Assembly (NCBI GenBank): GCA_045837725.1 | Contig: JBEWZL010000216.1 | Coordinates: forward strand, 372,001 to 436,000 | From: Vermamoeba vermiformis | Lineage: Eukaryota | Direction of reading: 5' to 3' | DNA: 64,000 bases | Shown: piece after piece, positions 1 to 59,417 of the stretch | Position numbering within the stretch: position 1 is the stretch's first letter | Layout: each line of letters opens with the position of its first letter | Notes under the pieces: generated by a model | The model's input: the letters and a program-made list of their open reading frames with translations, nothing else | The model's database searches: none | Told to the model about the DNA's origin: nothing | Program-made: the position numbers and the translations under genes

Positions 1-1658
1 CCGAGCCAGTGACACCTGTCACACCGCGCACTCCACCCGCCAACAAGATGTACATACCGCGCTATCGATCAGGGGCCTGGGCAATACTGATCAGCATGCT
101 GACTGCTGCACGTGAGGAGGGTGAGGGCGATGACACGTGTCAAACACTGATGTCCAAGGAGGAGATTGTCATGCGCGCTCGACCCCTCAGCACTGCGAGC
201 TTTGAAGCGGAACAACAAGTCTTTGATCTCGCCAACAAATCCACCGAAGAGCTCGAGCGCGAGATCACGTGCCCTGGTGGATACACCGCGTGGAGTGCCA
301 TGACTAAATTAAGAAGTCGCGGACTCGTGGAAGTGAAGGTCATGAACAACGTGCACATGTTCCGCTTGACCAAATCGGGCAAAGACTTGGCCAAGAAGCT
401 ATTTTTAGCTGCGCAACAACTCGACGAAGACCCGCGCGAGATTGCCACGCCAAAGAGGGCACGCGAAGGTACGTGGAGGACTGTTGTTGACACTTGACTG
501 ACACTTTGACAGCTGTGGATGATGACAGAACGCCAAAAAAGCGACGCATTGACACGTGTCAAACAGAGACTTCCAACAACATCAACGTGAACAATGTCGA
601 TGTGATTGACGTCGAGTCAGGGCCTGATCCCACCACCGTGCAATCTCCGCTCAAGACAGTGACACCTGTCAAACACGCACCTCAACCGAGCCACGTGACA
701 GATGTGCGCACCATTCTCAGCAGCCCTCACGCACGAGTGGTGCTATTAATAGACAATCGCGAGCTGAACCGCGACACCACCCGTTCACTGAAAGACAAAT
801 TAACTGAACTCGGCGTGGTGTGTATCTCGCGCAATCTCGAGCTCGGTGGTACGTACCAAATTAGGCAATATGAACTAATTTTCACTGAACAGACATGATG
901 TGGGTGGTGACTGATGCCCCAGCCCTGGTAGATGGCACGCACGCACCTGAACTCGACGCGCGTCAAGTGGTGTTGAATGTCATTGTGGAGCGCAAGACCA
1001 TTGGAGATCTGCGCTCAAGCTTGGCTGACGGCAGGTACGGTGTTTGACACGTGTCATTGCGAGGTCTGTACTGACACGTCACAGGTACAAAGAACAGAAA
1101 TTCCGCTTGAAGAAAAGTGGCATCAGTCGCGTGCTGTACGTGATTGAAGGGGCAGTGGAAGATGAGACTTTCAGACCTCTGCTCAGCGCCATTCAGTGCA
1201 GCATGAGCGTTCATGAATCGATCGAGCCAGTGCGCACCAAGGGCGAGGAAGACACCGCGATATACCTGTCACACGTCACGCAGTACCTCACTCGACAACT
1301 CGACGCGTACCGTGCAGGGGATGGCAGTGCAGTGCCCGCGTGGAGCAGTGCCGTGACCCTGGCCGAGTGGTGGCACACTGCCAGCAAGTCCAAGCACCTG
1401 ACACTCAGCGATGTCTTTGCCAAACAGCTGCTCATGCTCAAACAGCTCACTCCGCAGCGCGTGGCAGCTATCGTGCAGCAGTACCCGACACCGCGCTCAC
1501 TGCTCGCTGCGTACAATGCGCGCGAGGTGGATCCACGTGGGCGCGATGAACTGCTCGCGGACCTCAAGACTGGGGCTGACAAGAAACGCATTGGACTTGC
1601 CACCAGTCAGCGCGTCAGTCTGTTCTACAACCACATCGGTGACAATCTCACGCTCTAG
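1..1658 (+). CDS. MUS81: Crossover junction endonuclease MUS81 (5' truncated; winged-helix, ERCC4 nuclease and HhH regions; introns near 469-511, 849-892, 1036-1085)
   Basis: YIPRYRSGAWAIL...YTAWSAMTKL winged helix; spliced LLIDNRE...LELGDMMWV...VERKTIGDLRSSLADGRYKEQKFRL ERCC4 motif; C-terminal YPTPRSLLAAY...KRIGLATS. Confidence 0.93.
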
Positions 1659-1807
1659 TGTCAACAGCACTGATTGGTGGTCGATCACGTGACGCGGTGC
1701 AGTTCTCGGAGAAATTTCTGACTTTGTGACCGCGACGGAGCGATTTGTTTGCGCCATGTTAAGCTCGAATTTGAGTTGAATAAGCACGACTATACAACGC
1801 AGTATAT

Positions 1808-2990: not shown

Positions 2991-3198
2991 CGGATGTGGC
3001 ACTGTACTGCACCATAAATCAATGTACATATCTGTAGTTCTCATTGTATTAGTAGTGTGTGTATATGATACAGTTCATAGTTCATTGTGTACCAGCAGAT
3101 TGAGTGAAAAGGCTGCAATCAGATCCAGCCATTTGTTTCTAACCCGAGCCACGCAATAACAAACACTTGCGTTGTATATAAGTATTCAATATATCACA

Positions 3199-4093
3199 AT
3201 GACATATTATCACTTCCTTAATTGCCTCGCTGTGGCCTTTTTGCCCTATTTTGTTACATACAAAGCCTCGCATCTGTAAGTCTAAAAAAATATCCTTGAA
3301 TTATCATAAAATAATTCGACAATATTTTTAAAATTATACATCATTTACGAATAATGCGTGAAAATTGTTTCCGCGAGATACAAATTTTTCTAATTTTTTT
3401 TAACCCAGATCTGAATATGGAGCTGTTAGGGCAGTATTAATCGGTGTATTTGGCTACTTAACGACGCAAATGATTCAAGTAATGCAACATAATTGTAATA
3501 ATCAAAGTAGCTAACACTATGAACTTCAGCTGGTCATTCAGTCATCAATAATTTCCACCGAATCCGCTGTGTTCAACATCACTCAGGTACGTTTCTGATG
3601 ATCACTACTAAATATCACTCCGCTCACATGCACCGCTTAGGAGGCACTCAAATTTGTGATTGGTTTGGTGTCTGTGAGTGGCATGGCAATGTCACTGACA
3701 CGTGTCAAAGACAAAGAGACACGTGTGTTGGGTGTGGGTCTGGGCTGGGGCCTCGGTGAATGCATCGCACGACGTGTTGTTCCGCTCTATCTCATGGCCT
3801 CGGGATACGATTGGTCCGTGCAACATCTCTTGGTGGCACTCGAGTCCTTGCCCGTGTTGTTGCTGTCCCTCGCCCTCGCTACCCTTGTGACACTCTCCAA
3901 CCGCCGCGTCGTGCAAGTGACACCTGTCAGACTGGGACTCGCACTGGTGCTGCTCACTGGTCCACTGTTCAGCTACCTCGCGCACGTGACTGTGTTCGCT
4001 GAATGGCAATTGACAGCTGTCAAATTGGGCTACGCACTGCTCACCGCGCTGTACACGCGCCATTTGTGGAATTCCGCACCACGCAGTCAATAA
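3199..4093 (+). CDS. TMEM147: TMEM147 (BOS complex subunit) homolog, multi-exon
   Basis: Spliced N-terminus [30 protein letters not shown] and LGWGLGECIARRVVPLYLMASGYDWS resemble TMEM147 as I recall it. Confidence 0.85.
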
Positions 4094-4250: not shown

Positions 4251-6102
4251 TTACTCATCACCCTCGTCCTCGTCTTCATCGTCTGACCAATCAGACCAGT
4301 CCCCGTCACCACCACCAGGCTCAGGCATCTCCGCCATAGCTTTGCGATGTCGTTCCATGGCCATTTTGAGCACGGAAGTCACATCGGCAGGCGGCGCAGG
4401 ACTCGATGTCGATGCCTCGCGCGCCACTGGTCGCAGCACGGCACCCTTCTTGACGTCATCCAAGAACGAGCTGCGCGACCCTGAACTGCTGACACCCCCG
4501 CTGGAGGGCTGGGGAGGGGGTGGAGGAGCAGCGGCGTTGGTGTTCTTGGCAGGGGCGGGGGGTGGTGGAGGAGGAGGGGGCGGCGCTGCACCGCCTGACA
4601 CGAGGGGCGGGGGTGTCGGGGCCACAATGCCACTCGGAATGGGTGGAGGGGGCAGCGGCAAGTCCGCGACACCGGTGGTGACAGGCAGGGGCAGGGGTGC
4701 GGGCAAGAGCGCGGTGTCAATGGGCTCGGGGGGCAGGGGCAGCGAGGTGGCCGCGTTGTTCATGATCTCAAACACCTCTTTGGCCAGCGAGCTGTTCTCT
4801 TGCAGATCGTGCTTGGTGAGACCAATCGACTTGAACAGTTCCTTCCAGTCGCCAGGGATGTTCGAGATGTCAAAGCCGCCGTCTGCTGTCCAGCCCACGT
4901 GACTCTCGTGCTTGAAGTTGGTCGGGGCCGAAGTGACACCTGTCAAACACTGGTCAGCACCGTACAACTCCTTATTTGTAAGTGCTACATACGCGTGTCA
5001 ATGTACTGAATGAAGACGCGAATACGACCAGCGACCTCTTTGTTGTCGAGCAGCAGATCGTACCACTTGTACTGGTAGCTCGGCGAGTCAAAGTCGCGCA
5101 CAGCACCGCGCAGGGGGAAGGTGACCTCGCCGTAGTACTTGCCCTTTGAGGTCGTCGGCTTCTCACCGCTGCACACGCGCACTGCTACGATCTCGCTCTC
5201 CGCATCCGTCACGTCCCTGGCTGCAGATCAGTACCCTGCTATATGTGTGTGCAGCGTATATGTCACTTACAGTTGAAAGGCCTCGTTCCAGCTGGGCTCT
5301 AATGTCTTCTTCTGCTTCGCTGTAGCAAAGGCTTTGCGCCCATCCTTGTCGCCGAGCACTTCGCGCATGTAGATGAATGCTGCGGGTGAAGGTGCGTCTT
5401 TGCTAATCTCTGCTTTGAGCTCTGCAGACACCACTGCGCAACACTAGCGTCAGAATGTGCAGATCCATGGCAAATTGAATTAAAAAATATTAAATATTCT
5501 ATTAAATACTATGGTGTGCATATAAATTAAGAATACCACACCATAATTCATATCAAGCATATATTCGAATAATTGAGCCACAAACACCAACACTTACATT
5601 GAATCTTGACCGAGCAGGGAGTGGTGCCCTTTTCAGCTTTGAGTGGCTTGCTGGGCTCAGGTGGCTTCTCGAGTGCCTTCTTCTTCTTGGTGCCATTGGT
5701 GCTCTTCTTCTTCTTCTTGGTGCCGTTAGTCGCGCTCTTCTTCTTCTTGCTCTCTTTGCCCGATCCAGACCCAGTCAAGCTGCGCGCTGATTGCGGTGCT
5801 GCCAGATTGGTGTCGCTAGTGGCACTCGCTTGCAGATTGACTTGCGAGGTCTTGGTGTTGAGTACGGGGGGTGGCGGCAGTGCGGCAGGGGTGGGCTGAG
5901 ATTCAACGACCTGCACGTAGGAGGCCGGGAACCAGCCAATGCCAGAGCCGTCAGGTTTCTGTGCCTGCCACCAGACACCGCGCCCATCAGTGCCGAGCAC
6001 TTCGAGCTCCAAGCCCACTGTCAGCGAGAGCTCCGTGGCTGAACTCGCGCTGTAGGGGGCAATGGCTTTGACGTGAAAGGGAGGCTGTAACTGTTCAGTC
6101 AT
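4251..6102 (-). CDS. WASP-family actin nucleation-promoting factor with SH3-C2-CRIB-polyPro-WH2-C-A architecture (4 exons)
   Basis: SH3 VKAIAPYSASSATELSL...GWFPASYV; C2 TLEPSWNEAF...GEVTFPL...KWYDL; CRIB SAPTNFKHESHVGW; poly-Pro; WH2 RSSFLDDVKKGAVLRPV; acidic tail DGDWSDWSDDEDEDE. Confidence 0.85.
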
Positions 6103-7639: not shown

Positions 7640-7708
7640 TGCGTGCGTGAATGGAAATCAGATGTGCTTAGTTGATTGAACGCAGTGCAACACGAGCAGC
7701 ACGTGAAT

Positions 7709-10475
7709 ATGAATCGATTGGGCAACAGCAGACACGAGGACGATGAGCCCGAGAGTAATCCGCACGTAAGTAACGAGCACTAGCGCTGTTGGATCCAAAT
7801 TGAACCCAATAATAATAATTATTTTAAATATTCAATTAAATGCTTAATATAGTTGTATATGATGCAATCTAACTCAGTAATACTGTGAAAATATTCAATA
7901 ATAATGAGGGAATAATCCTCGATTATTCTCAGCATCTGACAAACACTCGTCAGTGCAGCAGTCCCATAACAATAACAGAGCACAGTGCCAGTACACACCG
8001 CGCGTACTGACCATGCACAGGTCCCACAGCTCGATGCACAACAGTTGCGCACTGCCGCCACGGAGGACGCGCAGTTCTTGGCCTTTGAAGCACAACTAGC
8101 GCGCGAGAAGGAGGTGAGTCTAAATATAGCTACGTCCAATTATAGCAATCAACGCGTGACATGTGTGACAGGAGCGCAAGCGAGCCAAGCGCGACAAGAA
8201 GGCGAAGAAGAAAGAGAAGAAAGAGAAGCACAAGAAACGCAAGCGCGAGGACAAGAGTGACAAGCGCAAGAAGGTGAGTGTACTGGCGTGGCGTGTGTGG
8301 TGTTGTATTGTAGCTGCGTAGTGTAGTGGTGTATTGTGTAGTGCTGTGATGAATAGCGAGTGTTGATGAGCGTGTGACTGACTCCCCGTTGCAGAAACGA
8401 AGAAAAAAGAATTCCGGTTCGAGTGACAGCAGTGACAGCAGTGACAGCGAGCACGTGACTGACACCCCGCACGTGACAGCAGTGGAAGGTGATGATCACG
8501 TGACCATGGAGGGGCCAGCACTGCCTCCCTCGTTCACTGAACCAGGTAAGTGTCACAATGACAGGTGTCAGCGATTGACCGGCGCTTCTAACGGTGATAT
8601 GTTGACAGCTGTCAATCCCGAGTCTCTTGCACGCGAGGACTGGATGATCAGTGCACCTAAGCGCGCACAGCCAGCACGTGTCAGTGAACCAGCGCCATCA
8701 CGTGACAGCGAGGTGACAGCAAGTGTCAAAGAGCTCAATCCCGAGCTCAATCCTGACTCGGCACTCACACGCCGCGACTATCGTGTCGGGGACGGGGGAC
8801 GAGGCTGGCGAGAGCGCGCACTGCAACGACAACGCGAGCACGTGACTGACAAGCACGAATCACGTGACAGTGAGCGCTCATCGACCAGGGCTAACCAGGG
8901 CCGTGGATGGCGCAAGAACGACAGACCACGTGATGAACACGTGACACACGTGCCTGAACAGCAAGTGACACCTGTCAGTGTGAGTGTTGCACCCAAGCCA
9001 CGTGTCTCCAGTGCGGAACAACTCAGTGAGGAGGATCGCAATCTCCTAGCCCTGGACGAGAACAAACTCGCCGCGCAGTTGGTGAAAGCCGAGATGTTGG
9101 GCAATCAGGAGCACGTGACGCGTCTGCGCGGTCAACTGGCACGTGTCAGTGAACTCAAGGCACAGCTCCGAGCACGTGATAGCACTGAACAGGACGAGCA
9201 CGTGGTCCTTATTTCTCCGCTCGATTCTTACGGCCGCGCACGTGTCAGCAGCGTAGCACGTGATCAGACAGACCAATCACGTGACAGCAGCAAATCACGT
9301 GGTCTGCACGACGAGAAAGGAGAGCGCCAAGAGTACTTCACCGACGACAATATCTCGCTCGAGGAGATGGTGCGTCGCGAGGTAAGTGAGCACGTGACTG
9401 GTGGTCAGATGCAGCCTCTGACTCATTCGCGCAGAAAGAGAGTCGCACCAACGAGTACGATCAAGTCTACGCAGCCAATGTCGCGCGCAGCAGCAAGTTC
9501 CGCACGGGCATCAGCAGCGTGGCGAACACGGACAGCGAGTTCGACGAGGCACAGTACCAGCAGTGGAGTCGCAAGGGCGAGACGAGCTACAAGCACCAGG
9601 GCAAGGAGCTCGACAAGCGCGACAAGCGTGAGCGCGATAGGGCCATCAAGGGTGAGTGCTGCGATGTCTATATAAGGCGATGATGTCTAAATATGGCACT
9701 AACACTGGCCCCCCAGACACACGTGCCCAGACTCGCGAGCAACAAGAGTGCTACCACTGCTACGAGAACAAGCGCATCAGTCCGCACCTGTTGATGAGTC
9801 TCGGCGAGCACTCCTACCTCGCACTGCCCGATCGACCGATCCTGCGCACCGATCACTGTCTCATCGTGCCACTGCAGCACCAGTACGCGGTCACTATGAT
9901 GGGTACGTTACTTGCCTGATTAGGTAATGCATCTCCGAGCACTGACACGTGTCACAGATGAGACCACGTGGAATGAAATGCGCGTGTTCATGAACAGTCT
10001 GAGCAAGATGTACGCCAAGCAGGGCAAGCAAGTGATATTCACTGAAACAGTGCTCAATCTCAAGAAGCGGCGCCACACCTACATTGAGTGCTTTGCCCTC
10101 GAGACCTCGCGCGCCCAACAAGCGAGCTCGTACTTCAAGAAAGCGATCAACGAGTCCGATGCCGAGTGGAGTCAGCACAAGAAGCTGATCGACACCACCG
10201 ACAAGGGACTGCGCCGCTCCATTCCACCGCACTTTGACTACTTCTACGTGCAGTTTGGACTGCATCAGGGCCTTGCGCACGTGATTGAAGACCACAGCAA
10301 GTTTCCGTGGTACTTTGCACGCGAGGTAATAGGTGGCATGTTGAACTTGTCGCCAGACCTCTATTTGCGACCCAAACGACAACTGCCTGATGAGGAGAAG
10401 AAGCGTGCCAAAGAGTTTTTGGCCCAGTGGCTGCCGTTTGATTGGACTGCTGAGCTGGAGGGTGGACAGCTCTAA
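7709..10475 (+). CDS. CWF19L2: CWF19-like protein 2 (CwfJ C-terminal domains), multi-exon; start tentative
   Basis: VGDGGRGWR, NKLAAQLVKAEMLGN, CYHCY, HCLIVPLQH, HTYIECF, YFKKAINESDAEWSQHKKLIDT, GLAHVIED, W.PFDWT. Confidence 0.92.
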
Positions 10476-20539: not shown

Positions 20540-21784
20540 ATGGAGCACACAAGTGATAGCAACACGACTACGAGTGTTGATAATAATAACACCAATGCGA
20601 GCACTACTGGTCTGCGGCGTAGCATGTTCGAGCGAAGAAACAGATTCACCCTCAGACTCGGTAGACGCACAGCGATACCGGTAGTATTAGCACTGCACGA
20701 CCCCAAGTCATTCAGCGAGGTCATATTTCAAGTAGGTCCTATTATCAGTGGTGGCTAGTGCATTACTCAGAATTATTTGCACTCATTCGAATTATTTTAT
20801 TGGAATAATAGCAGTGATACTCACAATAATTATACTGAGTACTGCAATTCTCTGCAATACTAACACCGCTGTCCACAGACCATATTGTCGCTGATGAAAG
20901 ACAAGATCATCAAGTACTTGCAATACGACCCCTACCACGGACAGCTGCGCGTGGTGTCAGATCTGCCCTCGCCGCACAGTGCGGTGGTGTGCACCGAACT
21001 GCAAGCTGCGCACCACTTGACGCTGCTCTATTACTTCACGCCGCACGACCCTCCTGCATTTGTAGTGCGCAACACGAGCATCACCGTGCTGCGTACTGGT
21101 CCTGCGCTGCGCACTGCATTGCCTAATAAGGAAAGTGAAAGTGAGCGTGCCAGCAGCGAGGCGGAACAACTGGACGAATCGGATGAAGACGAGCACGTGG
21201 AGGACGATGAGCGGAGCTGGCACTCACTGCACGCACGTGACGATGAGGAGGGTACAGAGGACTATGCTAGTGCGGATGTGCTCGATGAAGTGGACGAGGA
21301 GTATAATGATGATGGCAATGATGATGACCATGCGCACGAGGATGATCGAGACAATAACAACAACCACACCACCAATCACCAGGACCACACTGACGCAGCT
21401 AATGATGACGTCCATCACGTGGTCAGTGAGGTCGATGACGAGCACGTGCTGCTGTCAGATGACACGAACGAGCACGTGACAGCACAGCACGAATCACGTG
21501 ACAGCAGTGTGCATCACGTGCGCGGCTACGAGTCACTGCGACTGTTGAGTCACGTGCTCGTGTTGGAGACCGTGAGTTCCGAGCACAGTTTGACACATTT
21601 GCTGTCACAGCAGTCACGTGACACTGCTCCCGTGCATCACTTGTCGCGCTACTTTCGTAAGTACTCGTGCGTTCAGTGAAACACTTCCGATGCTAAATAT
21701 AGCGCAGAACAATCGACGCCCAGCAAGAAGCGCAAGTCCGTGGGCAGTGACAGCGCACGTGGTCGGAAAAAAGCCAAAAAGTGA
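20540..21784 (+). CDS. Hypothetical nuclear protein, tentatively Saw1/SLX4IP-like
   Basis: 3 exons; RFTLRLGRRTAIPVVL, acidic linker, GYESLRLLSHVLVL; LSRYF PIP-like motif; bipartite basic C-terminus SKKRK...RKKAKK. Family call is from memory and weak. Confidence 0.4.
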
Positions 21785-21818
21785 CACGTGTCATTCAGTG
21801 ACTCGGAACAGCGATTGT

Positions 21819-22586
21819 TTATTCATCCGAGTACAGCACAAAGCACTGACCTGTGCGCGCTAGTTGCAGGCCAGTCACGTGTTCAGGCACGTGTTCGTTG
21901 TGGTGATATATCCACACGGAGTCACGTGCTGGCCAGTGTGCGGCGATGAATTGCCTAATTTGGTCATACGAAGCATGATCTTCAGAGCTCTTCTCTCGCG
22001 CGTCAATGAACACCGTGCGCGCCTGACCAATCGCGTGATAGAGAGGCACGTGATAGCCGCTGTCCCCCGATATACCGAGCAGCGCCTCGTCGCGGTAGTA
22101 CAGCACGCAGCCGTAGCACAACTGCGAGTGACGCGCGTGGTGCACACTGATGGACAACTCGCCTGTCACTGCCGTGCGAACTCCTGTTTGACACTTGTGC
22201 CACGTGACATCTAGCGGTGCACCGACCATCTCGCTCATGCGATGTGTTTGCAACAATTCTGCGACCTGTTCCTGGAACAGCAATAAATTGAGGGGCGTGT
22301 TTGACACGTGTCACTCACTCACCTGCGCCACTACTGTCACGTGCTTTTCAACCGCAGCGCATATCGGCAGTTCAGCCGCGTGATCTCCGTGATTGTGCGT
22401 GACGTAGATGTACTTGGGTATACTTTGCGCCAGTGCACGACACTGTCTCACGACACCAAAGCCGATGTCAATCAGCAGCACGGGCACGTGATTGATGCGC
22501 AGTACAAATGCAGAACTGCAATGACCTTCGTAGACCATGGACGGACCTGCTCCGACACCGAGACACAGTACATCGATGATAGTCAT
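21819..22586 (-). CDS. Metallo-beta-lactamase-fold hydrolase (RNase Z/PhnP-like), one intron
   Basis: LGVG, LLIDIGFG, THNHGDH metal motif, HS..CYG, SGDSG, EDHAS, IYH. Confidence 0.85.
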
Positions 22587-36415: not shown

Positions 36416-38164
36416 ATGGAAGTCCTGACTTATCTCGCGACTTTGCCGCAAGAGTTAAAATCACAGTTATTTGGCTTAGCACCCACTTGTAAAGCTATAT
36501 TTAGGTATGGCGACGCAATTTAATATTTTAGGCAATTATTGGTGCGAATGATTAAATTATTTGACGCGGATCAAGCGAGCAAGAATTTCTGAGAATTGTT
36601 CAACGACCATCGATCAGCTCAAATCAATGCGAATACTGATCAAATCATACGACGTACTAGGACATTATCGCCAGTGGGCAAGCAGCTCATTCTGCGCATG
36701 TTACACGCTAATAAAATCACATTGTCAAATCCACATGCTACAGTAAAAGAACAAATGAAGCTATTAGAGAAGTTGGAGCTCGTTGATGTTGAAGATAAGA
36801 AGTAAGTGCATTGTGTACCAATTAGACGTGCATTAACCCCTGCTAGCAATGTGACTCAGCTGCAGATCAACAGTACATTTCAAACTCGATTGAAAGAAGC
36901 GCTGTACGAGTGAGTATAGATGATTGTATATTAATAGCGTTATAATTAATATGCGTTAGAACGGCCAATAAGGACACATCAGACATGGAGGTCGATGGTC
37001 CCTCCACAGATGTGATAGACCAGTACGCGCGTGAGCAGTGGGAACAGATCTTGTTGTTCATATTGACTGCCATTCATGAACAGATCGTGCGCAGTGGTGA
37101 CAGGGGCGGAATAATTCCTAAAAATAGACCAGCTCTGTCTGCCTCACTCGTGCAGCTGTTGACGGACATTGGACTGATTGAAGACAAGGAGTACGACTAA
37201 TAGGACACTATTCATATAGAACTCTAGTATTTACAGTCATATCAATAGGGACTACCACGCAGTTACGCCACTAGGTCTGAAATTTATCTTTGACGAGCAA
37301 GCAGTGCAGATCTGGACCCTGGTGCAGTTCTACATTGACCACCTCTCGCGCACACCACGTGATCGCGTTGAAATTATCAATTTTATTTTTCAGCTCAACT
37401 TCCTCGCGCCAGGCCGCGGCTATTCATCGCGCGCACTCACTGCGGCACAACAACGAGCCCTGCGCGATCTCCACGAGCTGGGTCTGCTGTACATTGACGA
37501 ACAGTCACGTGATCAGCTCGTGACACGTGTCAGTGCGGGCAAGAAGGCGAAGAGTGTGGACATTATGTACTATCCCACGATGCTGGCTGTGGATCTGATT
37601 GGTCACCAGTCACACGGTGCCACAGAGGTCACTGAGCAGTCACGTGATCATCAACCAGGGCTCGCGGGACCAATCGCCGTGGCACGCAACAGCAGTGTAG
37701 TGAGTTCTGCCTCGCATCAACTCGTGCTCGAGTCCAATCTGCAGCTGTTCTCGCGTGACACGTGTCAATCAGCCATTCTCCGCTTGGCGCTGTTCACAAC
37801 CATTCAAGCACATCTACCAGGGCTCGTAGTGACACGTTTGACACGTGAAAGCATTCGTCGCGCACTGACACTCGGGCTCGATGTGACAGCCATCACGCAG
37901 TGGATCACTCGTCACGCACCGCGTCCTCCAGCAGCAGTGCTCGCACAACTGCATCTCTGGGCGCAAGAGAGACGACGTTTGACAGCTGTCAGTGCCGTGT
38001 CGTACGAACACTGGGCACGCGACGAAGACTTCATGACAGTGCTCAATTACGCGCGAGATCTGGGTGTGTTGTTGTGGCACCACCGAGAGAAGAGGATTCT
38101 CATCATATCTGCCACCGCGCACATCGCTATTAAGGAGTACATTAAGAACAACATTGTCTCATAA
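36416..38164 (+). CDS. GTF2H4: TFIIH subunit p52/Tfb2, multi-exon
   Basis: TCKAIFRTLSPVGKQLILRML, IDQYAREQWEQILLF, QIWTLVQFY, LRDLHELGLLY, YYPTMLA, LTRESIRRAL..G, QLHLWAQERRR, ARDLGVLLW. Confidence 0.9.
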
Positions 38165-39487: not shown

Positions 39488-40944
39488 TTACTGTGGCAAA
39501 TTAAAGGCCTTAATCGTATTTTGATACACGTGCTTGCCGAGTTCAGCCACATCCATTTCGCGAACCGCCGAGATAACTTCTAAGACCTGGCGGAGATGAC
39601 CTGTGTGTATACAAATGAATACAATGCGACACTTGTGTTCCAAATTTACTTACAGGGTTCATTTCTGCCTCTAATGCACGAATTGGCGTCCCATTTCTCT
39701 TTTCTCTTGATGTCCCACTTGGTCTGGATGTGTTTGCTGCCTGGATGTGTCGGACGAATCTCACACCACGGAGCATCTATGTGCGGGTCATTACTACACC
39801 TTACAATACTTGTCAGCCCTATTTACCGGTTTCAATGAGCAATCGATCGAGCGGGATCTGTTTCACGACTTCCACGCTCTCTTCAGTGCGCAGCGAACAG
39901 CCGTTGATGCCAATGTACAGCTCGGGCAGTGACGTCAGCTGCTTCATCTCGTCCATCGTGCCTGTGAAGCTGTGCACCACGGCCTGCTTGATGGAAGTGC
40001 GGTGACGGGAGATAATTTCTGTGCATCGAGTTAAATTTAACACTTTGACACGTGTCAGAATAAGGATCACACAATGACACTTACCCATAAAATCAGTGCA
40101 CGCACTGCGCATATGGAGGAAGAGTGGCAATGGACATTCGCGTGTCATGTTGAGCTGCAAATCAAAATACCTGTCAACACAACGTGTCAAACACGAGTCT
40201 TTGCAACAATTTCATGCAGACACGCACTTAATTTGCGTCGCTTTGTCACTGTACTCCAATCTGTCGTAGTCGAGACCCATCTCACCGAGGGCCACAATCT
40301 TCTTGGCGCTCTGATTGTCAGTCACGTGCTTCACCAGGGCCTTGTAATAGTTGTCAGCCCCGTGCGTGTCAAAAAGTTTGACATGTGTCGGATGCACACC
40401 TGCAGTGGTGAAGAGGTTGTCTGTGACACGCGCAATTAGAAGAGATTGATTAGCTCTATATATTTATAGGCACTCACCGCTAGTCTTGGCGAGTTCTAGT
40501 GTTTTGGGACATTCTAAGCGGCGTTAATATGGCCCGTTATAGTCAATAACATAGTGTTCGCTATTAATAGTACCCTCTAAATAGCCAGCGGTGATAATCA
40601 TCTTTTCAACGCCAATGTCAAAAGCTCTCTTCAGCACGTGTTCCACATCAGGACTGTGCGCTTGTTTGCCGTTGTATATGCCTCCATTAATATTATTTAA
40701 TTGTTGATTGGTGATTGGACGGGCTGCGTTGCTTACCAGAAAACATTGGATCTGTTAGTTAAATTAAAACAATTAAAATAAATTCGGCAAGTTGTTCAAC
40801 GGCACATATTCATCGTACCTAATAGATTGGCGCCAATATCTATTTAATTAAAATTAATCAGTCATCAACATTGCAACTCGTCGATCCACTTGTCCTACCA
40901 ATCATAGGGACCTTTACAAAAGTTGATGCGGTGTTTGTAGCCAT
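39488..40944 (-). CDS. TATDN1: TatD family DNase, many short exons
   Basis: DIGANL, GVHPT, VALGEMGLDYDRL, LPLFLHMR, VVHSFTG, YIGINGCSLRT, ETDAPWCEIRPTH, GRNEP. Confidence 0.93.
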
Positions 40945-51969: not shown

Positions 51970-53705
51970 TTACAAGAAGAGGACAACAGCAAAGAGCAAT
52001 AACGACACTACTGGCACCGCAGAGCTGACACCAGAAGTAGCGCTGTTGGGTGATCTCGACGAGGGAGATTGACTGGTTGAAGGCGCAGTGACGAGCTCAT
52101 CACCGAACACCTTGCCGCTGTTGTAGAGGTAGTTTGACACTTGAATGGTCGCATTGACAGCAAAGTCACTCTGCACATAGAGCACTTCACGGCCCTCTCT
52201 TAGCACTCTGAATTCAGGGGCAGGACCGAACTCAAGAGGCACGTAAAAGGACTGCATTCCTGCAGCGACATCGCGCGTGTGATTGACACCGTTCATTGTC
52301 ACGATGAGTGTGGCCGGTGCATCGAGGAACGCGAGCATTTCAACAAAGTCCACGCCAGGGGCACCATTCACAGCTGTAAATGTGACATTCTGCGGTGTTG
52401 GCTGCACGACCTCCGAGTCAGTGCGCTGTGAGCGGTGGAAGTAATAGACTGCCTCGCGCTTCAGTGCTGGTGGCGCACCTGTTTTGAACCAGTGCGTGTA
52501 ATAGGCAGTCAAGTCGTAGAACGAGTCCCTGGTGCCGGTGGAAGGTGAAATAATGCTGTGCTCGGAGTAGTCGTTCCACGTGATCAAATGCACGTAGTCA
52601 GCACTGCCGTTGATCGCACTCTCCCAGCCATTGCGGAATGTCACCGAGCAGTTTGCCTCAGTAAAAATACCGCTCTTTGGACGAAAATCTTGCGGGGCTA
52701 CTGGTGCGAGCCTAATCGATCGGAGGTGAGCACAACTAGAGTCCCATTGAATTTGTTCACATCACTCACCACTTCAGACCGCTGTTGTGCACTGTGGGGC
52801 CGTCATTTCTCACGTCGTAACTTCCCTGTTTAGTTCTAGCGCCCCACGTGCTGAACCCTGAGTGACACGTGTCAGCCATTAGTCGACTTTAAGACTCAAT
52901 ATTACTTGCCCATGATAGAATCCCCCCAGTTGTCAAATGAGGCAGGCATGGAGAGTGGCACGGGAATGACTGAGATGTTGATACCTTCGCGCGCCAGTTC
53001 GCTCTTGGCTTCACTCCACCACGTCACGTTGTTGGGTATGAAAGGTGTCAACAGAATCCCGTTGTTCTCTGGCGTGCGGTACACAATGGGCGAGTCTTTC
53101 CACTGTCTCACGAGGTCTTTGATCTGGTCGGGATTGTCTTGCATGTCCGTGCCTGCAAAGTCGGGCATGAACACCACGCGGAATGTTGGATCGACTTGTT
53201 CAATCACGGATATTGAACGACTGCAAGATTAGTAAGAAAATATATTAATATATTAATCATTAATAAGGGCTTACTTAATACCGGGGTCTGTAGCGGTAAA
53301 GATGTCGATAATGAATCCGTCAATGCCTAGACTGCGCGCTCGTCGCACTTCATTGGCAAAGTCGTAGTCCTTGAAATTAGGGGCATTGATTGGTGGTCTC
53401 GGCCACGGTCTAGAGCGCAAAAATCCGCCGTACTTGTTCCACTTGGCTTCTACACCACCGGCATACGGATTCAGATAGCCAGTCGTGTAGTAATCGTTAT
53501 CTGGGTCCTTGTTGTCGATGGATAATGGAAAGTTGAACATATATAATGCAAAAACTTTTTTAGGTGAGGCACGCAGCTGATCTACAGGGGCTGTGTCGAA
53601 AAAGAATGTGGGTTGAAAGGCATCTGGCGATTCAAGAGCGGCCCCGACGCGCATGACATGAATCAATGCAAGTACCGCGAGCACGAGCAATATTCTGTAC
53701 CTCAT
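51970..53705 (-). CDS. GH71 alpha-1,3-glucanase-like protein, secreted, putative GPI anchor
   Basis: Signal peptide; KKVFALY, EVRRARSLGIDGF, LITWNDYSE, YYFHR; Ser/Thr-rich linker then hydrophobic C-terminus. Confidence 0.82.
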
Positions 53706-53806: not shown

Positions 53807-56110
53807 ATGAAAGTACCTCTAAAGTCATTAATAGTACTTGTCTTCGCTATAGTGCTATTCAAGTTTGTGTCCTTTGAATACACTTCAGAGGTAAGCAAAG
53901 TCATCGCGCTATGAAAATTTAAAAAATAAAGACTTGTTTGCGCATTTAATATAATCGCTCGTTAATAATAGTAAAAATCGTAATAATATTATGCTGACGT
54001 TTTTTAAAGCCCATCTCGCCTGCCAACGTGTACCGCTTTGATCCGCCGAAAGCCCCGGAGTTGTCAGGTCTTGCTTACCAAATCTTGACCAATGTGGCGG
54101 AATCGCCTTTAATTGGTGATTTTTTGATGACAAAAATCAAGTTTGACTCGAAGATCCCGCTCGTAAGAAAGTTTGCCAATGACCGTCCTCACACTGCCCC
54201 TACTGTCATGCCTCTCGTGGCATCAAGCGCTGAGGAGCATCAGCAGGCAACTAAGGATGCTGAGACATATAATGTGGATTATTTAGTCCAAGCTGAAGGT
54301 GACTTGAAGCGCAGTGCGGATCCGAAGAACTTCAAGTACTGGACCATTGAAGACTATGCTGCTGCTTATAGAAAGAAGCTCACTACACCCCTCGATGTCG
54401 CGAAGAGTGCCATTAATGCTATCCGTGCCTCAGAGTCAATGACAGTACGTTACTTTGCAACGTTTTGTTTTCACTGAAACTGATCACTTGCACGTGTTCA
54501 GCCCGCCATGAATATTTTCATCGAGTGGCGCGAACAAGAAATTCTCGCTCAAGCCGAGGCCTCTGCCAAGAGATTTGCTGCCGGCAAACCATTGAGTGTA
54601 TTGGACGGTGTGCCAGTCGCTGTGAAAGATGAGTTCCACATGGCTGGTTATGTCACCACTGGCGGCACTTCATTCTTGAAGAGTGTTCAAGAGCACGACG
54701 CTACTATTGGTAAGCACGTGGTGTATTTATGTGGTCCAAACTGACACGTGTCACTAGTCCGCCGCTTGAAAGAACTTGGTGCCATCATTCTCGGCAAGAC
54801 CAACATGCACGAGATTGGCATTGGCACGACTGGTGAGAACTGGAGCTGGGGTCACGCGCGCAATCCTTACAACGCCTCGCATCATACTGGTGGCTCTTCT
54901 GCTGGCTCTGCTGCCGCGGTTGCTAGTAAGTACTTTGTGTCATTCAATCACTGCTTGCAATAACACGTTGAACAGGTGGATTGGTTCCTGTTGCAGTATC
55001 TGCTGACGGTAAGCAGTAGATTATTATACACCTATTTCTAATGCCATGGTAGGTGGCGGAAGCATTCGTATCCCTGCCTGTTTGACTGGTCAGTACGGCG
55101 TCAAGGGCACATTCGGACGATTCTCTGAGCACGGAGCACTGTCATTGTGTCACAGGTAGAGTGCTTGTCGTTATTATCCCTCTTTTGCTAATTGCATGCC
55201 CGTGCAGTGTTGCTCATGCTGGTCCTATTGCTGCCACTCCTAAAGACGCAGGTGAGTCATAGTCTAACGGTTATTGAGAACAGCTTACTGAACATTGCAT
55301 TGCCAGCCATCTTCTACGCGCTGATCGCTGGTCCTGATGACCACGACAAGAACACGCAAATTCAACCTGCAGTGCACGTCAAGGACTACGACAAGACCAA
55401 GGACTTGAGTGATTTGACACTCGGTGTTTATCCCGCCTACTTTGAAGACGCCGATGCTGAAGTCGTTGCTGCGTGCTACAAAATGGTCAAAGAGTTTGAA
55501 CGCCGCGGCGCACGTGTTGTGAACATCACTCTGCCGCACATCAATCTCATTTACACCTCGCACGTGATCACCATTACTTCTGAGATGGCCACTAACTTTG
55601 GTAATTATCACAATCTGATTTGCATTGGTGCTAGACTAACACGCGACAGACACGTATTACCAACACCACCGCCAAGACTTCTCGTTGGACACGCGCACTA
55701 AGCTGGCCTTGGCTCGTGCCATGTCTGCACGCGATTACTACGCCGCACAACAGACGCGCACGTGGGCGATGGAGATGTTCGAAGACATTTTCACGCGTCA
55801 GAAGGTCGATGTCATCGTGTCACCTGTCACTGCTGCCACTGCCCCGCGCATCAAGGACGCGCCCAGCACGGACATTGCTTCCGTCGCCAAGTTGATGCGC
55901 TATGCTAACCCGTACAACATGATTGGTGCCCCGGCTGTCAGTGTGCCCGTTGGTTACGACGAGTTCAATCTGCCCATCGGCTTGCAATTGGCTGCCGATC
56001 ACTGGCAAGAGCACAAATTGTTGCGCTTGTCGAACGTCGCTGAACAAGTGGTCGCTCGTCGTGCCCCGAGTGTGTTCTTCGATGTGTTGGGCAATGCGCT
56101 CAAGAAATAA
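53807..56110 (+). CDS. Amidase-signature enzyme, fatty acid amide hydrolase-like, multi-exon
   Basis: LDGVPVAVKD, GKTNMHEIG, TGGSSAGSAAAVA, ADGGGSIRIPA, PAVSVPVGYD..LPIGLQ; N-terminal hydrophobic anchor. Confidence 0.92.
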
Positions 56111-56629
56111 GATCTATGTAAGTTGGATCGTAAACCTGATCTGATTAACCTATTACACAACCGCATAATTCTATTTAATATAATAATATATATTTTACCT
56201 TTTTTAAGATTTTACTGAACGAAATTTACCAGCGTAAATTAAAATTCGGTCTGCAGATGGTGAAGAAAAATTGTTAATCCACATCCACCGCTCGCCTTCA
56301 AGCTAAATATTGAAATAATTTTGCTCGCAAATATACGCCGGAATATTTGATAAGACCGAATTAACGCAGCGTTTTCATACAACACAAATCCGTTGCACAA
56401 TTTTACGTGGCACCCTGCAACCTCTTGCGCAATATTACACAAACCTGCTATATATGGAGCTGATTTAGGTCTTTAATCTGTTTGTGGTTGGTTGTTGTTG
56501 ATTTTCACGCCAGAAATGACAAAAATAATAGAGGTGTGATTTATTCCTCCTGGGATTGCAACCACGAACCAACAGCATTTTTCAATACCAATTTACCTTA
56601 GATAGCATAGACTATATCTCCGCTGGTGA

Positions 56630-59417
56630 ATGGAGCGAGACGACTGGCAAGGAAAGTGGTCTAAGATCACGCCGACGAACGAAGGTCCGCGGCCTCGGAG
56701 AGGTCACGTTGTTCGCAAGGTAAAGATTAATCATCATGATAATCAAAGGCGTATTAGTATTTACTTCTTTCAAGACTATTCAACCCTTTAATTTCGATAA
56801 TTTGACTTAAAACGCGAAAATAATCCAGTATTAACAAATTTCCAAAATTAATATCATTCTGAAGCAAATGTTGCATTCTATTATATCCCCTAACGATATG
56901 TTTTTTCCGATCAGATCGACAATAGCACGGTTTTAGTGTTTGGTGGATACCAATTCGGCAAAGATTTCGATTGGAGCGTGCAAACAAAGCTCTTCTACCT
57001 CGATTTAGGTGCGCATTCATACATGACGCTTTGATGCAACAGCGGAGAAATACTAACGCGAATTCATTAAAGATACGTTGCAATGGCGCTTAGAGACCGC
57101 TATTGGCGCACCAACACCGACCGATGGCCCCGGCATTAGCGTCGTAGGAGACAAAATAGCTTCGACTGGTGGATCTGTATTCACTGGCGGTGTATTTGAA
57201 ACAGCAAACACGACAGAAGTGCTTGATTTAGGTCCGACTTTCCATATTTAGACATGAATCGTTTTGCTGACATGACGCGCGTTCCTAGGCAAGCACCTCT
57301 TCCTGCCTGCCATCGAGTGCAACAACGGTGATGTCCTCGAGGCGCGCTGCTGGCACATGGCTGCAACTGTGAGAGTCAAGCATCGCAATCTCCGGCCAGT
57401 TATTTCAGCGCGAGTACATCCAGTCGCGCAGCAGTTGTATACTGATCCTCAACGCGAACAAGATTTTTGCATGGTGTTTGGAGGGCGCTGCAATGTGCTG
57501 AATAACGATGGCAGTTCTGTGGTTGGATTTCGTTATTACAATGACGTGATGTTATTAGATATAGGTAAGCACTCCATATACTCGTTATAATGACCATCGC
57601 ATTGCGCTTTAAACAGTTTATACCGGTTTCGGGTCCCATACAGCTTTTTTAGCCCCTTGCCATATTAGGATTATTTCAGATCCAGATCAGATCCACTAAC
57701 CGCTTCATTAATGCAGAACTAGGGCGCTGGGTACGCGTTCAAACAGGTCCCGGTCCGACACCACGCGCAGCAGTGGCCTTTTGGGTGGTGGCAAATCGCG
57801 TGTACATCTTTGGTGGCCGATACCGAGATCAAGACGAAAACAACTACTTCTACAACGACATGTGGTGCTTTGACGCGAATACATTAAAGTGGGAGCCAGT
57901 CGTCTGTTTTGGAGATATTCCGTCGATGTGTGCCGGAGCCACCGCCGAAGTCTTGACGCCGACCAAAGTATTGGTGACAGGTGGCTTTGTGATATACGAG
58001 AGCGAGAACGACTTTGAATATTACAATCGCGTGCACCTGTTTGATTTAGGTACGTTGTCGGCTAACACCCGATGAATAGCGTGTTAATTATTTTATGACA
58101 TGTTGACACGTGTCACCGAGATGTAACTGCATTGCATTTTTAATACAGAGACCAACACCTGGACCGAACTCAAATGCGGGGGTGAAGTGCCTGCGCCGCT
58201 GACAGCACACGCGTTGACTTTGATTGACCGCGAGACGATAATGGTGTACGGAGGTGACAATCGCGTGCAAACACGCCTCGTCACGCACAACTTGGGCTAT
58301 TTCCTGCACCTCGAGCCTGGTACGTGTTGTTTATGTCTCAATATCACTTTGGTAATTAATAATATTATTACCAGACTTGTTCTTGTCGCACTTGCAACGC
58401 GACTACTTGCGCATGATGCGAGTACATGACTCACACAACGATCACGTGATCCAAGTCGAGTCACGTGAGCTGCCAGTGCACTCAGAACTGCTCAGAAAAC
58501 GCTGTCCGAAACTGCTGGCAACGGCACAACAAGGAGTGATTCGCATTGACGACGGAAAGTTGAACTTCCACGTGATGAGTCTGTTTTTAGACTACCTCTA
58601 CGCCAATCACGTGACTATTCAGCGCGACATGCGTGTTTTGGCGCAGCTGCAGCACTGTGCCGAGAAGTACCAACAAACCCAACTCGTCTCTGAACTGCGG
58701 CAACAAGTCTCAGATTTGACACGTGTCAAGTACGAAGAGTACAGTTGCGCACTGGCCGAGTTAGGCTTGATCGATCACGTGATCACTCCCGAGCCATTTA
58801 ACAACGCACCACGCGAAGTGATCGGCAATCAGGAGTGGCAGCTCAATTTGGAGGCTATGTTATTCTATCCCAACACTACGGACTTTGCATTACACGTGAC
58901 AGATGAAGGTGGAGAACAGTTGCAATCTCCCGTCGAGATTTTCAATGTGCATCGATTCGTACTGGCAAGCAGATCTGAATTCTTCGCCGCTGCGATCAGA
59001 ATGGCACTACAGAGGAACCTTACTCATATTTTCGTGGAAGATATTAGCATCAGAGGAGCTAGAGCACTATTACTATATTTGTACAGCGACAACATGGTAT
59101 TGTTAGAGTCGATTGAGATCTGCCTCGAGGTGCTTCATTTTGCGACGTTCTCAGCGATGATAGCTGAGCCTAGACACGATAAAGTCATCAAACACTGCCG
59201 AGGGCTAGTAATTCAAGCACTGAGCCTCGACAACTGTTTGGATGTGTACGAGGCTGCACTGACGGTGAGCGATCCAGTGCTGCGGGAACAAATTAAGACA
59301 TGGATTGCGCAACGAGCGAAACTAATATTGAAGAAGAGTCACGAAGAAGGTCTGAAACTGCGCGATGAAATATTGCATGTATTATCGCCCGAAAAACCTC
59401 AGGTGGAAAGTCAATGA
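56630..59417 (+). CDS. Kelch-repeat plus tandem BTB protein (LZTR1-like architecture)
   Basis: Kelch motifs PRPRRGH, VFGG, YIFGG...YNDMWCFD; BTB motifs VHSELLRKRCP...FLDYLY and VHRFVLASRSEFF...LLYLYSD. Confidence 0.82.

Follow-up and report, generated by a model that had tools for sequence, protein, structure and literature searches.

Islands of a 12-bp palindrome and CACGTG across protein-coding sequence of an amoeba: possible recognition sites for dimeric DNA-binding proteins

What could keep a 12-bp palindrome recurring through the exons and introns of unrelated genes? We analysed a window of 64 kb, the whole stretch of Vermamoeba vermiformis DNA considered here, to which all counts refer, with hints from contigs of other loci. 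The palindrome TGACACGTGTCA occurs 15 times exactly, whereas 100 dinucleotide-preserving shuffles averaged 0.02 copies and contained 1 at most, none reaching 15. The first-pass annotation had claimed at least 15 copies, and all 15 were confirmed where it had placed them. With the centre relaxed to TGACANNTGTCA (the dyad TGACA-NN-TGTCA) there are 26 sites, or about 0.4 per kb (shuffle mean 0.17, maximum 2), having CG (15), CC (5), GC (3), GG (2) or CT (1) at the centre. Most of the centre variants already listed stand; the one given as 4935 starts at 4934, and three had been missed (8559 and 34059, centre GG; 33297, centre CT). The description of the motif as often extended by TT...AA was overstated, as T...A is present on both sides at only 4 of the 26 sites, the base 3' of the TGTCA half-sites being A at 21/52 and the next two AA at 13/52. 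The sites are not an assembly artefact, since contigs derived from the reads of run X1, which may be the source sample, match all 13 dyads of positions 1-20000 with no differences; runs from other studies also contain the stretch.

The 12-mer belongs to a wider system built on CACGTG. All 26 dyads are instances of CANNTG, with centres CACGTG, CACCTG/CAGGTG and CAGCTG, and CACGTG itself is found 116 times in the window, 8.1 times expectation (observed/expected 10.2 within ORFs and 4.6 in non-ORF sequence). The 101 sites beyond the dyads are common to the same islands as the dyads. The median distance from a dyad to the nearest other CACGTG is 48.5 bp, where randomly placed positions give about 374 bp (0/1000), and the two motifs co-localise in 1-kb bins (Spearman rho 0.61). 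This setting was missed at first pass, although two parts of that interpretation, a DNA-level feature overriding coding constraints and its resemblance to TALE and E-box sites, were upheld; the genome-wide extent suggested there, and the mechanisms offered (methylation-coupled repair, a nucleosome organiser, drive), are to be read as proposals.

The dyad is a discrete unit with nearly invariant arms, a C/G-tolerant centre and a strict 2-bp spacer. Inverted TGACA/TGTCA pairs number 26 at a spacing of 2 bp; no other spacing between 0 and 12 has more than one, and everted pairs number 0-2. CACGTG carries a TGA flank on both sides in 15 cases, against 2.8 expected for independent sides, and 15 of the 17 copies of ACACGTGT are the full 12-mer. 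Among 11 one-mismatch variants, eight fall in the two centre positions and three in the ten arm positions, with none at the outermost base and no CpG-to-TpG/CpA products. CpG observed/expected is 1.05 both within and outside islands, with no depletion; the most that this tells us is that decay by deamination is absent. The base following TGACA is C in 38 of the 52 half-sites, G in 13 and A in one. No helical phasing of sites was found in the 64-kb window.

The great part of the system lies in coding sequence, with 20/26 dyads and 93/116 CACGTG in ORFs. In a set of 52 codon-scored ORFs, compared with 300 synonymous-codon and 300 codon-order shuffles, there are 9 exact dyads (0.30 and 0.00 in the respective shuffles), 20 NN dyads (1.15 and 0.06) and 93 CACGTG (32.6 and 15.3), so that enrichment persists over the synonymous-codon null. 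As proposed at first pass, the copies lie in unrelated CDSs and in different frames: 16 of the 20 dyads in ORFs read x-T-x-V-x and four D-T-C-Q, the third frame being a TGA stop on both strands. CACGTG occupies all three frames (41/39/13) rather than one, and it encodes 41 of the 49 His-Val dipeptides. Most asymmetric forms show no strand bias (sense:antisense 15:16 for CACGTGAT, 8:7 for CACGTGACT, 14:11 for CACGTGTCA). Since all usable frames are occupied with little strand bias, this is a feature of double-stranded DNA, neither of peptide nor of RNA. It alters codon choice, and even amino acids. Introns also carry the motif, with at least two dyads intronic (1045, 22302) and one (4934) lying across an RNA-confirmed 3' splice site. 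That a dyad supplies a stop codon (21782) is plausible under a predicted gene model with a putative 51-nt GTAAGT...CAG intron; its last exon would read ...KKRKSVGSDSARGRKKAKK and end on the dyad's TGA.

The sites originated as substitutions, and not as insertions, at ordinary positions of the protein alignments. All three Tfb2 dyads and both WD40 dyads fall at ungapped aligned positions when compared with homologues; fungal ...SSPLQIA..., for example, aligns with ...RDTCQSA... of Tfb2 in the window. In orthologous DNA of 83-87% identity (L001), the dyad is kept at 12/12 bases and CACGTG at 3/4 sites. Motif bases there are identical at 29/30 positions, against 86.2% of other coding bases (small n), and at third codon positions 9/10 against 66.7%, a comparison of only 10 bases with p roughly 0.1. 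RNA reads of a relative at 90-95% identity differ on both flanks of the dyad at 3696, with no change listed within it. The CWF19-like protein was compared with five relatives: the central Arg of xCA-CGT-Gxx does not vary at any of 13 sites (13/13), and the first residue is A, T, S or P only (NCA codons). Across that protein, motif-encoded residues are 0.78 identical and other residues 0.80, and 156/246 circular shifts do equally well or better; outside conserved blocks, which were picked by eye, the values are 0.77 and 0.64. In the WD40/RING gene, relatives of 91% identity retain 8/10 CACGTG peptides, roughly as many as the background identity would give. At the 33297 dyad, some of the 91% relatives have Gly for the window's Ser, and a canonical GG centre could encode Gly. 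A distant WD40 homologue (44% identity) has 1/10 CACGTG peptides in common, which suggests that the sites are lineage-specific. These few comparisons lean towards conservation of the nucleotides, though not clearly in excess of background.

The sites are gathered in islands (Table 1). Eight islands covering 4834 bases (7.6% of the window) contain 76/127 sites (60%), crossing exons, introns and a spacer. In 2-kb bins the variance/mean ratio is 6.15 for CACGTG (reached in 0/2000 simulations) and 1.96 for dyads (5/2000). ORFs of similar GC can be nearly empty: CK2-beta has no site in 1089 bp, 38277-39323 none in 1047 bp, and 45799-47094 one in 1296 bp. Such strong clustering, together with absence from many genes of similar composition, speaks against a uniform genome-wide process. 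The marked genes are Mus81, a DUF2053 membrane protein, CWF19-like, Tfb2, WD40/RING, BTB and a weak MBL-like gene, among which no common function is evident.

Table 1. Islands and dyads in the window
Feature	Position	Context
E-box island	13..697	7 sites, Mus81
E-box island	3699..4019	5 sites, DUF2053 gene
E-box island	8452..9396	23 sites, CWF19-like gene, 24 sites per kb
E-box island	21194..22490	19 sites, over two convergent genes and the spacer between
E-box island	32210..32591	4 sites, WD40/RING gene
E-box island	33972..34086	4 sites, WD40/RING gene
E-box island	37356..37988	7 sites, Tfb2/p52 gene
E-box island	58443..58898	7 sites, BTB gene
exact TGACACGTGTCA	131..142	Mus81 exon, D-T-C-Q
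exact TGACACGTGTCA	550..561	Mus81 exon, D-T-C-Q
exact TGACACGTGTCA	1045..1056	~50-nt Mus81 intron, inferred from reading frame
exact TGACACGTGTCA	3696..3707	DUF2053 gene, L-T-R-V
exact TGACACGTGTCA	9943..9954	CwfJ/CWF19-like gene
exact TGACACGTGTCA	21782..21793	acidic-protein gene, TGA is inferred stop codon
exact TGACACGTGTCA	22302..22313	inferred 51-nt intron 22272-22322, minus-strand gene weakly MBL-fold-like
exact TGACACGTGTCA	23004..23015	minus-strand ORF, M-T-R-V-K
exact TGACACGTGTCA	37521..37532	Tfb2/p52 conserved domain, V-T-R-V, ungapped aligned position
exact TGACACGTGTCA	37756..37767	Tfb2/p52 domain, D-T-C-Q, ungapped aligned position
exact TGACACGTGTCA	40046..40057	without coding support
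exact TGACACGTGTCA	52863..52874	coding support ambiguous
exact TGACACGTGTCA	54742..54753	without coding support
exact TGACACGTGTCA	58104..58115	without coding support, upstream of BTB gene ORF
exact TGACACGTGTCA	58717..58728	within BTB gene ORF
variant TGACACCTGTCA	10..21	Mus81 exon
variant TGACACCTGTCA	660..671	Mus81 exon, V-T-P-V
variant TGACACCTGTCA	3918..3929	DUF2053 gene
variant TGACAGCTGTCA	4011..4022	DUF2053 gene
dyad variant	4934..4945	straddles 3' splice site (TGACAG/GTGTCA) of RNA-confirmed minus-strand intron 4940-4992
variant TGACAGGTGTCA	8559..8570	CWF19-like gene
variant TGACAGCTGTCA	8603..8614	CWF19-like gene
variant TGACACCTGTCA	8966..8977	CWF19-like gene, V-T-P-V invariant in 5/5 relatives, flanks vary
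variant TGACACTTGTCA	33297..33308	WD40/RING gene
variant TGACAGGTGTCA	34059..34070	WD40/RING gene, 12/12 bases kept in L001
variant TGACAGCTGTCA	37980..37991	Tfb2/p52 C-terminal domain

The explanation that we prefer, tentatively and at somewhat less than an even chance, is that the 12-mer and CACGTG are clustered putative recognition sites for one or more dimeric DNA-binding proteins, combining a TALE-type dyad with an E-box/G-box core and kept by selection on the DNA. It builds on the observed DNA-level nature of the sites, the geometry of the dyad, its origin by substitution, the clustering and the co-localisation of the two motifs. Dimeric sequence-specific protein(s) would read both words on double-stranded DNA. 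The arms, inversion and 2-bp spacing of TGACA-SS-TGTCA are those of a site for two TALE homeodomains, and the favoured CG centre turns the dyad into a CACGTG E-box/G-box as well, the filler word of the islands themselves. Selection on nucleotides, which we infer in preference to mutational drive, would keep the sites, dictating codon choice and some amino acids, in islands of 0.1-1.3 kb that, at some loci but not others, extend over exons, introns and spacers alike. As for the output, our guess is locus-specific transcriptional or chromatin control. Several observations count against this explanation: the ORF location of most sites, which is unusual for transcription-factor sites; a density of up to 24 sites per kb; marked genes without evident common function; conservation not clearly above background; no helical phasing; and the preference for C over the TALE-canonical G as sixth base (38:13). 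The evidence comes, moreover, from a single window of 64 kb.

A less probable account, but the most serious rival, is a drive resembling that of the cyanobacterial HIP1 word, in which CACGTG or the 12-mer is made out of near-cognate sequence by a repair, gene-conversion or methylation-linked process; sites would then accumulate where they are tolerated and need no function individually. In the same doubtful category we place its fuller form, a self-reinforcing word (CACGTG plus the 12-bp dyad) that would be the eukaryotic counterpart of HIP, spread by sequence-specific repair or gene-conversion bias, perhaps in recombination-prone islands of a polyploid amoeba. Such a drive fits with the overwriting of conserved protein positions, as in Tfb2, with the lineage-specific sites of the WD40 comparison, with the use of every frame and the enrichment of non-ORF sequence, and with the functional incoherence of the marked genes. 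It fits also with the excess of exact copies (15) over arm variants (3), when as many as 30 different one-base changes could occur in the arms, and it has a precedent in the methylation-dependent mismatch-repair model for cyanobacteria given in PMC4390886. In contrast, island clustering is strong and ORFs of similar GC have zero or one site, CpG observed/expected is the same within and outside islands, and one-base deviations gather at the centre, opposite to the outer-position bias of HIP1. If true, it would mean a HIP-like word with the power to change both codons and conserved residues in many unrelated genes.

It is improbable that the words act at the RNA level, whether as sites bound in the transcript, as small hairpins or through pairing of self-complementary copies. 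The majority of sites are in transcribed sequence, the 12-mer could fold into a stem of 4 bp whose 4-nt loop would carry the variable centre, and sense exceeds antisense for CACGTGAC (24:9, p=0.0135) and CACGTGACA (11:1). However, amino-acid constraints can produce this bias, the nine antisense copies of CACGTGAC are themselves well over the nulls (0.96-1.49), and the remaining asymmetric forms are strand-neutral. Moreover, the arms are invariant in sequence and do not covary, and sites lie also in introns and where coding support is lacking.

Still less likely is an artefact in which peptides recurring in low-complexity regions (EHVT, SRDS), multiplied by local tandem duplication, yield the word counts. 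Short tandem arrays bearing the motif do exist (8442-8477, 9239-9301, 21872-21896), a block between two EHVTD copies is present in relatives and missing from the window, and islands coincide in part with disordered segments that are acidic or rich in Ser. Yet several frames are used within one ORF at spacings of 22, 11, 28 and 26 nt, and sites occur also in conserved domains (Tfb2) and introns. The synonymous-codon shuffle, which preserves every peptide and still falls far below the observed counts of CACGTG and exact dyads, largely refutes this idea. Least likely of all are relics of a mobile element: a transposon ending in TGACA... would have left 12-bp in-frame insertions or footprints of its excision. 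The length is divisible by three, the palindrome resembles joined inverted-repeat ends and the genome has a very high-copy foldback element, but this origin is contradicted by the ungapped Tfb2 and WD40 alignments, by flanks unrelated between copies, by the lack of target-site duplications, by a variant spectrum unlike even decay and by the absence of CACGTG from the foldback element.

How does the system compare with known ones? HIP1 (GCGATCGC) is described, in PMC4390886 and PMC13756078, as a short GC-rich cyanobacterial palindrome, evolutionarily conserved and of a frequency far above expectation, for which a methyltransferase link and a role in transformation have been proposed. The window palindrome is alike in far exceeding expectation, and does so in coding sequence against codon-aware nulls. 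HIP1 has a quasi-periodic distribution along the genome (PMC13756078) and one-base deviations biased to its first and last positions (PMC4390886), whereas our sites are clustered (variance/mean 6.15 and 1.96) and their deviations central (8/11). The host here is a eukaryote, and the motif has 12 bp where HIP1 has 8.

Bacterial parS and matS are palindromic protein-binding sites of 13-16 bp within coding sequence that act on the chromosome, not on the host gene; they number a few to a few dozen per chromosome, are read by ParB or MatP and, in Bacillus-type parS, have a CACGTG centre. The likeness is that of gene-internal palindromes, and nothing in the window points to ParB- or MatP-like proteins. 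In the literature searched we found no description of islands of this kind, with a 12-base palindrome across protein-coding sequence, from any eukaryote.

For the sites of dimeric proteins that we favour, the comparison is with E-boxes and TALE dimer sites. CACGTG, the E-box/G-box, is a bHLH or bZIP site, and known examples are promoter or enhancer elements. The CANNTG/CACGTG core is common to all 26 dyads and 101 further CACGTG; the window sites differ in being over-represented 8-fold over 64 kb, in exons and in all frames. To our knowledge, it would be unusual for one dimer to take CG, CC and GC at the centre equally. Two monomers, one on each arm, fit the combination of invariant arms and a permissive centre. 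The canonical TALE half-site is TGACAG, from which the window differs in its sixth base (C not G, 38:13), and its sites are mostly coding and clustered with CACGTG. The half-site TGACA, the inverted arrangement and the 2-bp centre are nevertheless those of ATTGACAGCTGTCAAT, the DNA crystallised with two TGIF1 homeodomains according to PMC6158717. The resemblance to TALE-homeodomain dyads and E-boxes noted at first pass is sound: the core of that crystal DNA, TGACAGCTGTCA, is identical to three window sites (4011, 8603, 37980).

The 12-bp palindrome TGACACGTGTCA (the exact dyad) occurs 15 times in the window, position for position as reported in the first-pass annotation, compared with a mean of 0.02 and a maximum of 1 in 100 dinucleotide-preserving shuffles. 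Its relaxed form TGACANNTGTCA (the NN dyad, TGACA-NN-TGTCA) is found 26 times, compared with 0.17 in shuffles. Contigs derived from the reads of X1, a sequencing run that may come from the source sample, span each of the 13 dyads in the first 20 kb and show no difference there. Since the stretch is present both in these contigs and in sequencing runs of other studies, the assembly artefact that the annotation had considered is excluded. The E-box/G-box core CACGTG (116 copies in the window) is the most extreme palindromic hexamer, at 8.1 times the base-composition expectation and 4.8 times that of a first-order Markov model. A general compositional trend is ruled out, as ACGT is at an ordinary level (observed/expected 1.08; CpG 1.05) and no other palindromic hexamer exceeds 3.4 times expectation. 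Nor is there an alternating purine-pyrimidine trend, such hexamers being unenriched (5290 vs 5638 under the Markov model). The sequences flanking the 12-mer are unrelated and different at each copy, and a longer repeat or MITE enclosing it is therefore ruled out. Scanning the window for Rfam families and for tRNAs gave no matches. Several words unrelated to the palindrome are also enriched, namely GCAGTG/CACTGC and GCACTG/CAGTGC (4.2-4.5 times), TGCGCG/CGCGCA (4.4 times) and CAGCACTG (11 times), and others are strongly depleted (CCGG, 0.25; CCCGGG, no copies).

The 12-mer is a discrete unit. The form ACACGTGT makes up 17 of the 116 CACGTG sites, 15 of these 17 being the full 12-mer, and CACGTG carries a TGA flank on both sides 15 times compared with 2.8 expected from independent halves. 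Inverted TGACA pairs occur 26 times with a 2-bp spacer and at most once at each other spacing from 0 to 12, and everted (0-2) and direct (0-4) pairs are rare at each spacing. The centres of the 26 dyads are CG (15), CC/GG (7), GC (3) and CT (1). Among the 11 one-mismatch variants of the exact 12-mer, eight have their mismatch in the two-base centre and three in the ten arm positions, and none is a CpG deamination product. Such a pattern characterises a recognition site in which two arms are read, as opposed to copies in decay. C is preferred over G as the sixth base, directly after TGACA (38:13 half-sites). The TT...AA extension noted in the annotation survives only as a weak outward bias: 21 of 52 half-sites are followed by A at +1, and 4 of 26 dyads are bracketed by T...A. 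Many of the non-dyad CACGTG sites fit GA[GT]CACGTGA[CT].

Enrichment at the DNA level persisted against codon-based nulls, computed on 52 self-trained ORFs (32.6 kb) with 300 shuffles of each type. The ORFs contain 9 exact dyads (0.30 after synonymous-codon and 0.00 after codon-order shuffling), 20 NN dyads (1.15 and 0.06) and 93 CACGTG (32.6 and 15.3). Within this set, CACGTG encodes 41 of the 49 His-Val dipeptides. Copies had been said to lie in different frames, and they do: CACGTG occupies all three (41/39/13) and the dyad both of those that avoid a TGA stop (16 and 4). In a single ORF, successive sites are 22, 11, 28 and 26 nt apart, and thus in different frames. Most asymmetric forms are strand-neutral (sense:antisense 15:16, 8:7 and 14:11); CACGTGAC is sense-biased (24:9), with an antisense count still far above the null. 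Taken together, the codon nulls, the frames and the strand neutrality mean that the counts are not explained by a peptide motif or by an RNA element. Protein and codon usage are the normal shapers of protein-coding sequence; here, both are demonstrably overridden by a DNA word of 6-12 bp in certain genes but not in adjacent ones.

The sites (CACGTG plus dyads) are strongly clustered. In 2-kb bins the variance/mean ratio is 6.15 for CACGTG, a value reached in none of 2000 uniform and none of 2000 ORF-stratified simulations, and 1.96 for dyads (5 and 11 of 2000, respectively). Chaining sites at gaps of up to 300 bp gives eight islands, which in 4834 bp hold 76 of the 127 sites, at 10-35 per kb. 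Dyads and other CACGTG co-localise (rho 0.61), with a median distance of 48.5 bp vs about 374 bp for random positions (0/1000). CpG islands are ruled out, as CpG observed/expected is 1.05 inside and 1.04 outside, and the hexamers that set the islands apart are all fragments of the two motifs. The islands cover exons, introns and one convergent-gene spacer, without a fixed place in genes. They mark the genes for Mus81, the DUF2053 protein, the CWF19-like protein, an acidic protein, a weak MBL-like protein, the WD40/RING protein, Tfb2 and a BTB protein, among which no shared function was seen. Sites are few or absent in CK2-beta, ELMO, the mutase and the proteasomal ATPase, and likewise in several ORFs without annotation whose GC is similar. 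Helical phasing was not found (10-bp period, nominal p 0.026 among 11 periods tried), and the only periodicity of the sites is 3 bp (67/38/38).

Protein-coding genes of the window
Gene product	Position	Strand	Evidence
Mus81	1-1658	+	Pfam
DUF2053 protein	3641-4090	+	Pfam
PBD protein	4251-4967	-	Pfam
CwfJ/CWF19-like protein	8374-10475	+	Pfam
Proteasomal AAA ATPase	13955-14887	+	Pfam
Methylmalonyl-CoA mutase	17847-20081	-	Pfam
CK2-beta	26197-27189	+	Pfam
ELMO	27612-29351	-	Pfam
WD40/RING protein	31888-34446	-	Pfam
TFIIH subunit Tfb2/p52	37304-38164	+	Pfam
GH71, BTB and Kelch proteins	within window		Pfam

The DNA of the window is eukaryotic. The mutase shares 96% identity with a EukProt protein labelled Vermamoeba vermiformis and 62-70% with the other 119 proteins among the matches listed, the named ones being mostly amoebozoan, fungal and oomycete. 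On this basis the window derives from that species or one closely related to it. The MBL-like gene, modelled from exons read in the sequence and an exon-by-exon Pfam scan, has a weak match below Pfam's cut-off (E=0.0018). RNA reads confirm introns of 53-108 nt; the four confirmed introns end in TGACAG, TTCAAG, TACCAG and CCACAG. One confirmed 3' splice site lies inside a dyad, but given these endings the splice signal is rejected as a general source of TGACAG. Two intron styles may exist in 1-23000, on a small sample: GC-richer introns of about 50 nt (GTACGT/GTATGT...CTGAC...CAG) in the motif-marked Mus81, PBD (4940-4992) and MBL-like (22272-22322) genes, and AT-rich introns of 98-108 nt (13629-13727, 13826-13933 and 17354-17451) in unmarked, better-expressed genes, the RNA run being from a 90-95% identical relative, so that divergence confounds read depth as a measure of expression. 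Past about 40 kb, GC drops to 0.42-0.46 from about 0.50, long ORFs are sparser and E-box sites fewer; the last 24 kb hold 5 of the 26 dyads. Runs carrying the labels of several other organisms, and metagenomes from water, roots and biofilms, contain DNA or RNA nearly identical to 1-10000, the part queried; this fits a ubiquitous free-living amoeba accompanying cultures and samples.

At 10885-11440 lies a foldback (MITE-like) element, about 560 bp long, with inverted arms of about 140 bp (10885-11024 and 11301-11440) whose segments are 83-100% complementary. It contains no CACGTG. Its word depth in the DNA run exceeds that of its neighbours by factors of tens to hundreds (33,408 and 21,019 vs about 400; 152,094 at one position), and a water metagenome of independent origin likewise shows elevated depth; RNA depth is zero across 10673-11339.

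Judged by protein alignment, the sites arose by substitution. All three Tfb2 dyads align without gaps to the yeast, Chaetomium and human p52 structures, FPTRLA corresponding to LVTRVS in the window and SSPLQIA to RDTCQSA, and both WD40 dyads are ungapped against relatives at 91% identity. These ungapped positions rule out 12-bp insertions and excision footprints. Against a WD40 homologue at 44% identity, one of the two dyads is aligned without gaps and the other coincides with a gap; only one of ten CACGTG-encoded peptides is in common, and the sites are therefore lineage-specific. Some extra copies stem from local tandem duplication of motif-bearing units. In the CWF19-like protein (8374-9675; columns ~158-170 of its alignment with five relatives), all five relatives have a block of about 12 residues that is missing from the window; two E-H-V-T-D (CACGTGAC) copies flank it, consistent with deletion through recombination or slippage between motif copies.

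Evidence for conservation is limited and mixed. A metagenome scan yielded a single close fragment (L001; 2.6 kb, 83-87% identity, over the WD40/RING gene), the only orthologous DNA; scans of genome and viral contigs with the CWF19-like alignment found no relative. In this fragment the dyad at 34059 keeps all 12 bases with both flanks changed, and three of four CACGTG are kept, the fourth being CACATG. Motif bases are identical at 29 of 30 positions vs 86.2% in the remaining coding sequence, and at 9 of 10 vs 66.7% when third codon positions alone are compared, which, on 30 bases, is suggestive. RNA of the 90-95% relative differs at 3694, 3715 and 3724-3733, with none of the changes listed inside the dyad at 3696. 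Among five CWF19-like relatives (74-98% identity), conservation of motif-encoded residues is 0.78 vs 0.80 for the rest, and 0.77 vs 0.64 outside three conserved blocks delimited by eye. At these sites the central Arg is invariant (13/13), the first residue is limited to A/T/S/P (NCA codons) and the third is mostly V/A/D/E/G (GNN codons; exceptions V-to-I/N); the V-T-P-V peptide of dyad 8966 is invariant. This is the variation that nucleotide conservation would predict. The WD40 gene retains 8 of 10 peptides at 91% identity, about background.

What could account for such a word? We tentatively rank as most likely that the islands are clustered recognition sites of dimeric DNA-binding proteins, maintained by selection on the DNA. 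Invariant arms and a tolerant centre fit two monomers, each reading TGACA. A CG centre also turns the dyad into CACGTG, which populates the same islands, and both motifs could be explained by one reader with two modes or by two cooperating readers (TALE plus bZIP or bHLH, which we take to be the candidate classes). The main rival, which we consider unlikely, is a repair or conversion drive like that of HIP1, the cyanobacterial highly iterated palindrome. Such a drive accounts for overwritten conserved residues and for the lack of functional coherence among marked genes, but matches poorly with the islands, the motif-free genes of similar GC and the centre-biased deviations. The remaining readings are minor: an RNA-level one is opposed by the strand neutrality of most asymmetric forms, a peptide or slippage one by the excess over synonymous-codon shuffles, and a mobile element by the ungapped Tfb2 dyads.

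Because all data come from one 64-kb window, we can only infer genome-wide occurrence, for which the sole support is that contigs from other loci attach at motif positions. Among the literature titles listed (subscription journals and supplementary files being outside the scope), none presents the word as a genomic feature or reports a HIP-like element in a eukaryote; the exact 12-mer retrieved Ebola-related titles only, and for the 10-mer core only plant regulatory-motif titles concern sequence motifs. If the islands are protein-binding platforms, a dense regulatory or chromatin layer lies inside this amoeba's exons, offering a tractable system for dual-use codons and site birth through nonsynonymous change. 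If instead repair or conversion bias drives the word, it would be the first eukaryotic HIP1-type analogue in the literature searched and a new source of non-adaptive protein evolution. Vermamoeba-like amoebae, common inhabitants of water systems, host giant viruses and Legionella. Under either reading the word provides a strong genomic signature for these amoebae, which could aid metagenome binning of their DNA and bear on viral mimicry or avoidance.

Among known systems, the dyad shares the geometry of ATTGACAGCTGTCAAT, the DNA to which two TGIF1 homeodomains bind (PMC6158717), and three window sites are identical to its 12-mer core; unlike the canonical TALE site, the window prefers C at the sixth base. 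HIP1 differs in two respects: its deviations are outer-biased (PMC4390886) and its spread quasi-periodic (PMC13756078), whereas in the window deviations are centre-biased and sites are clustered.
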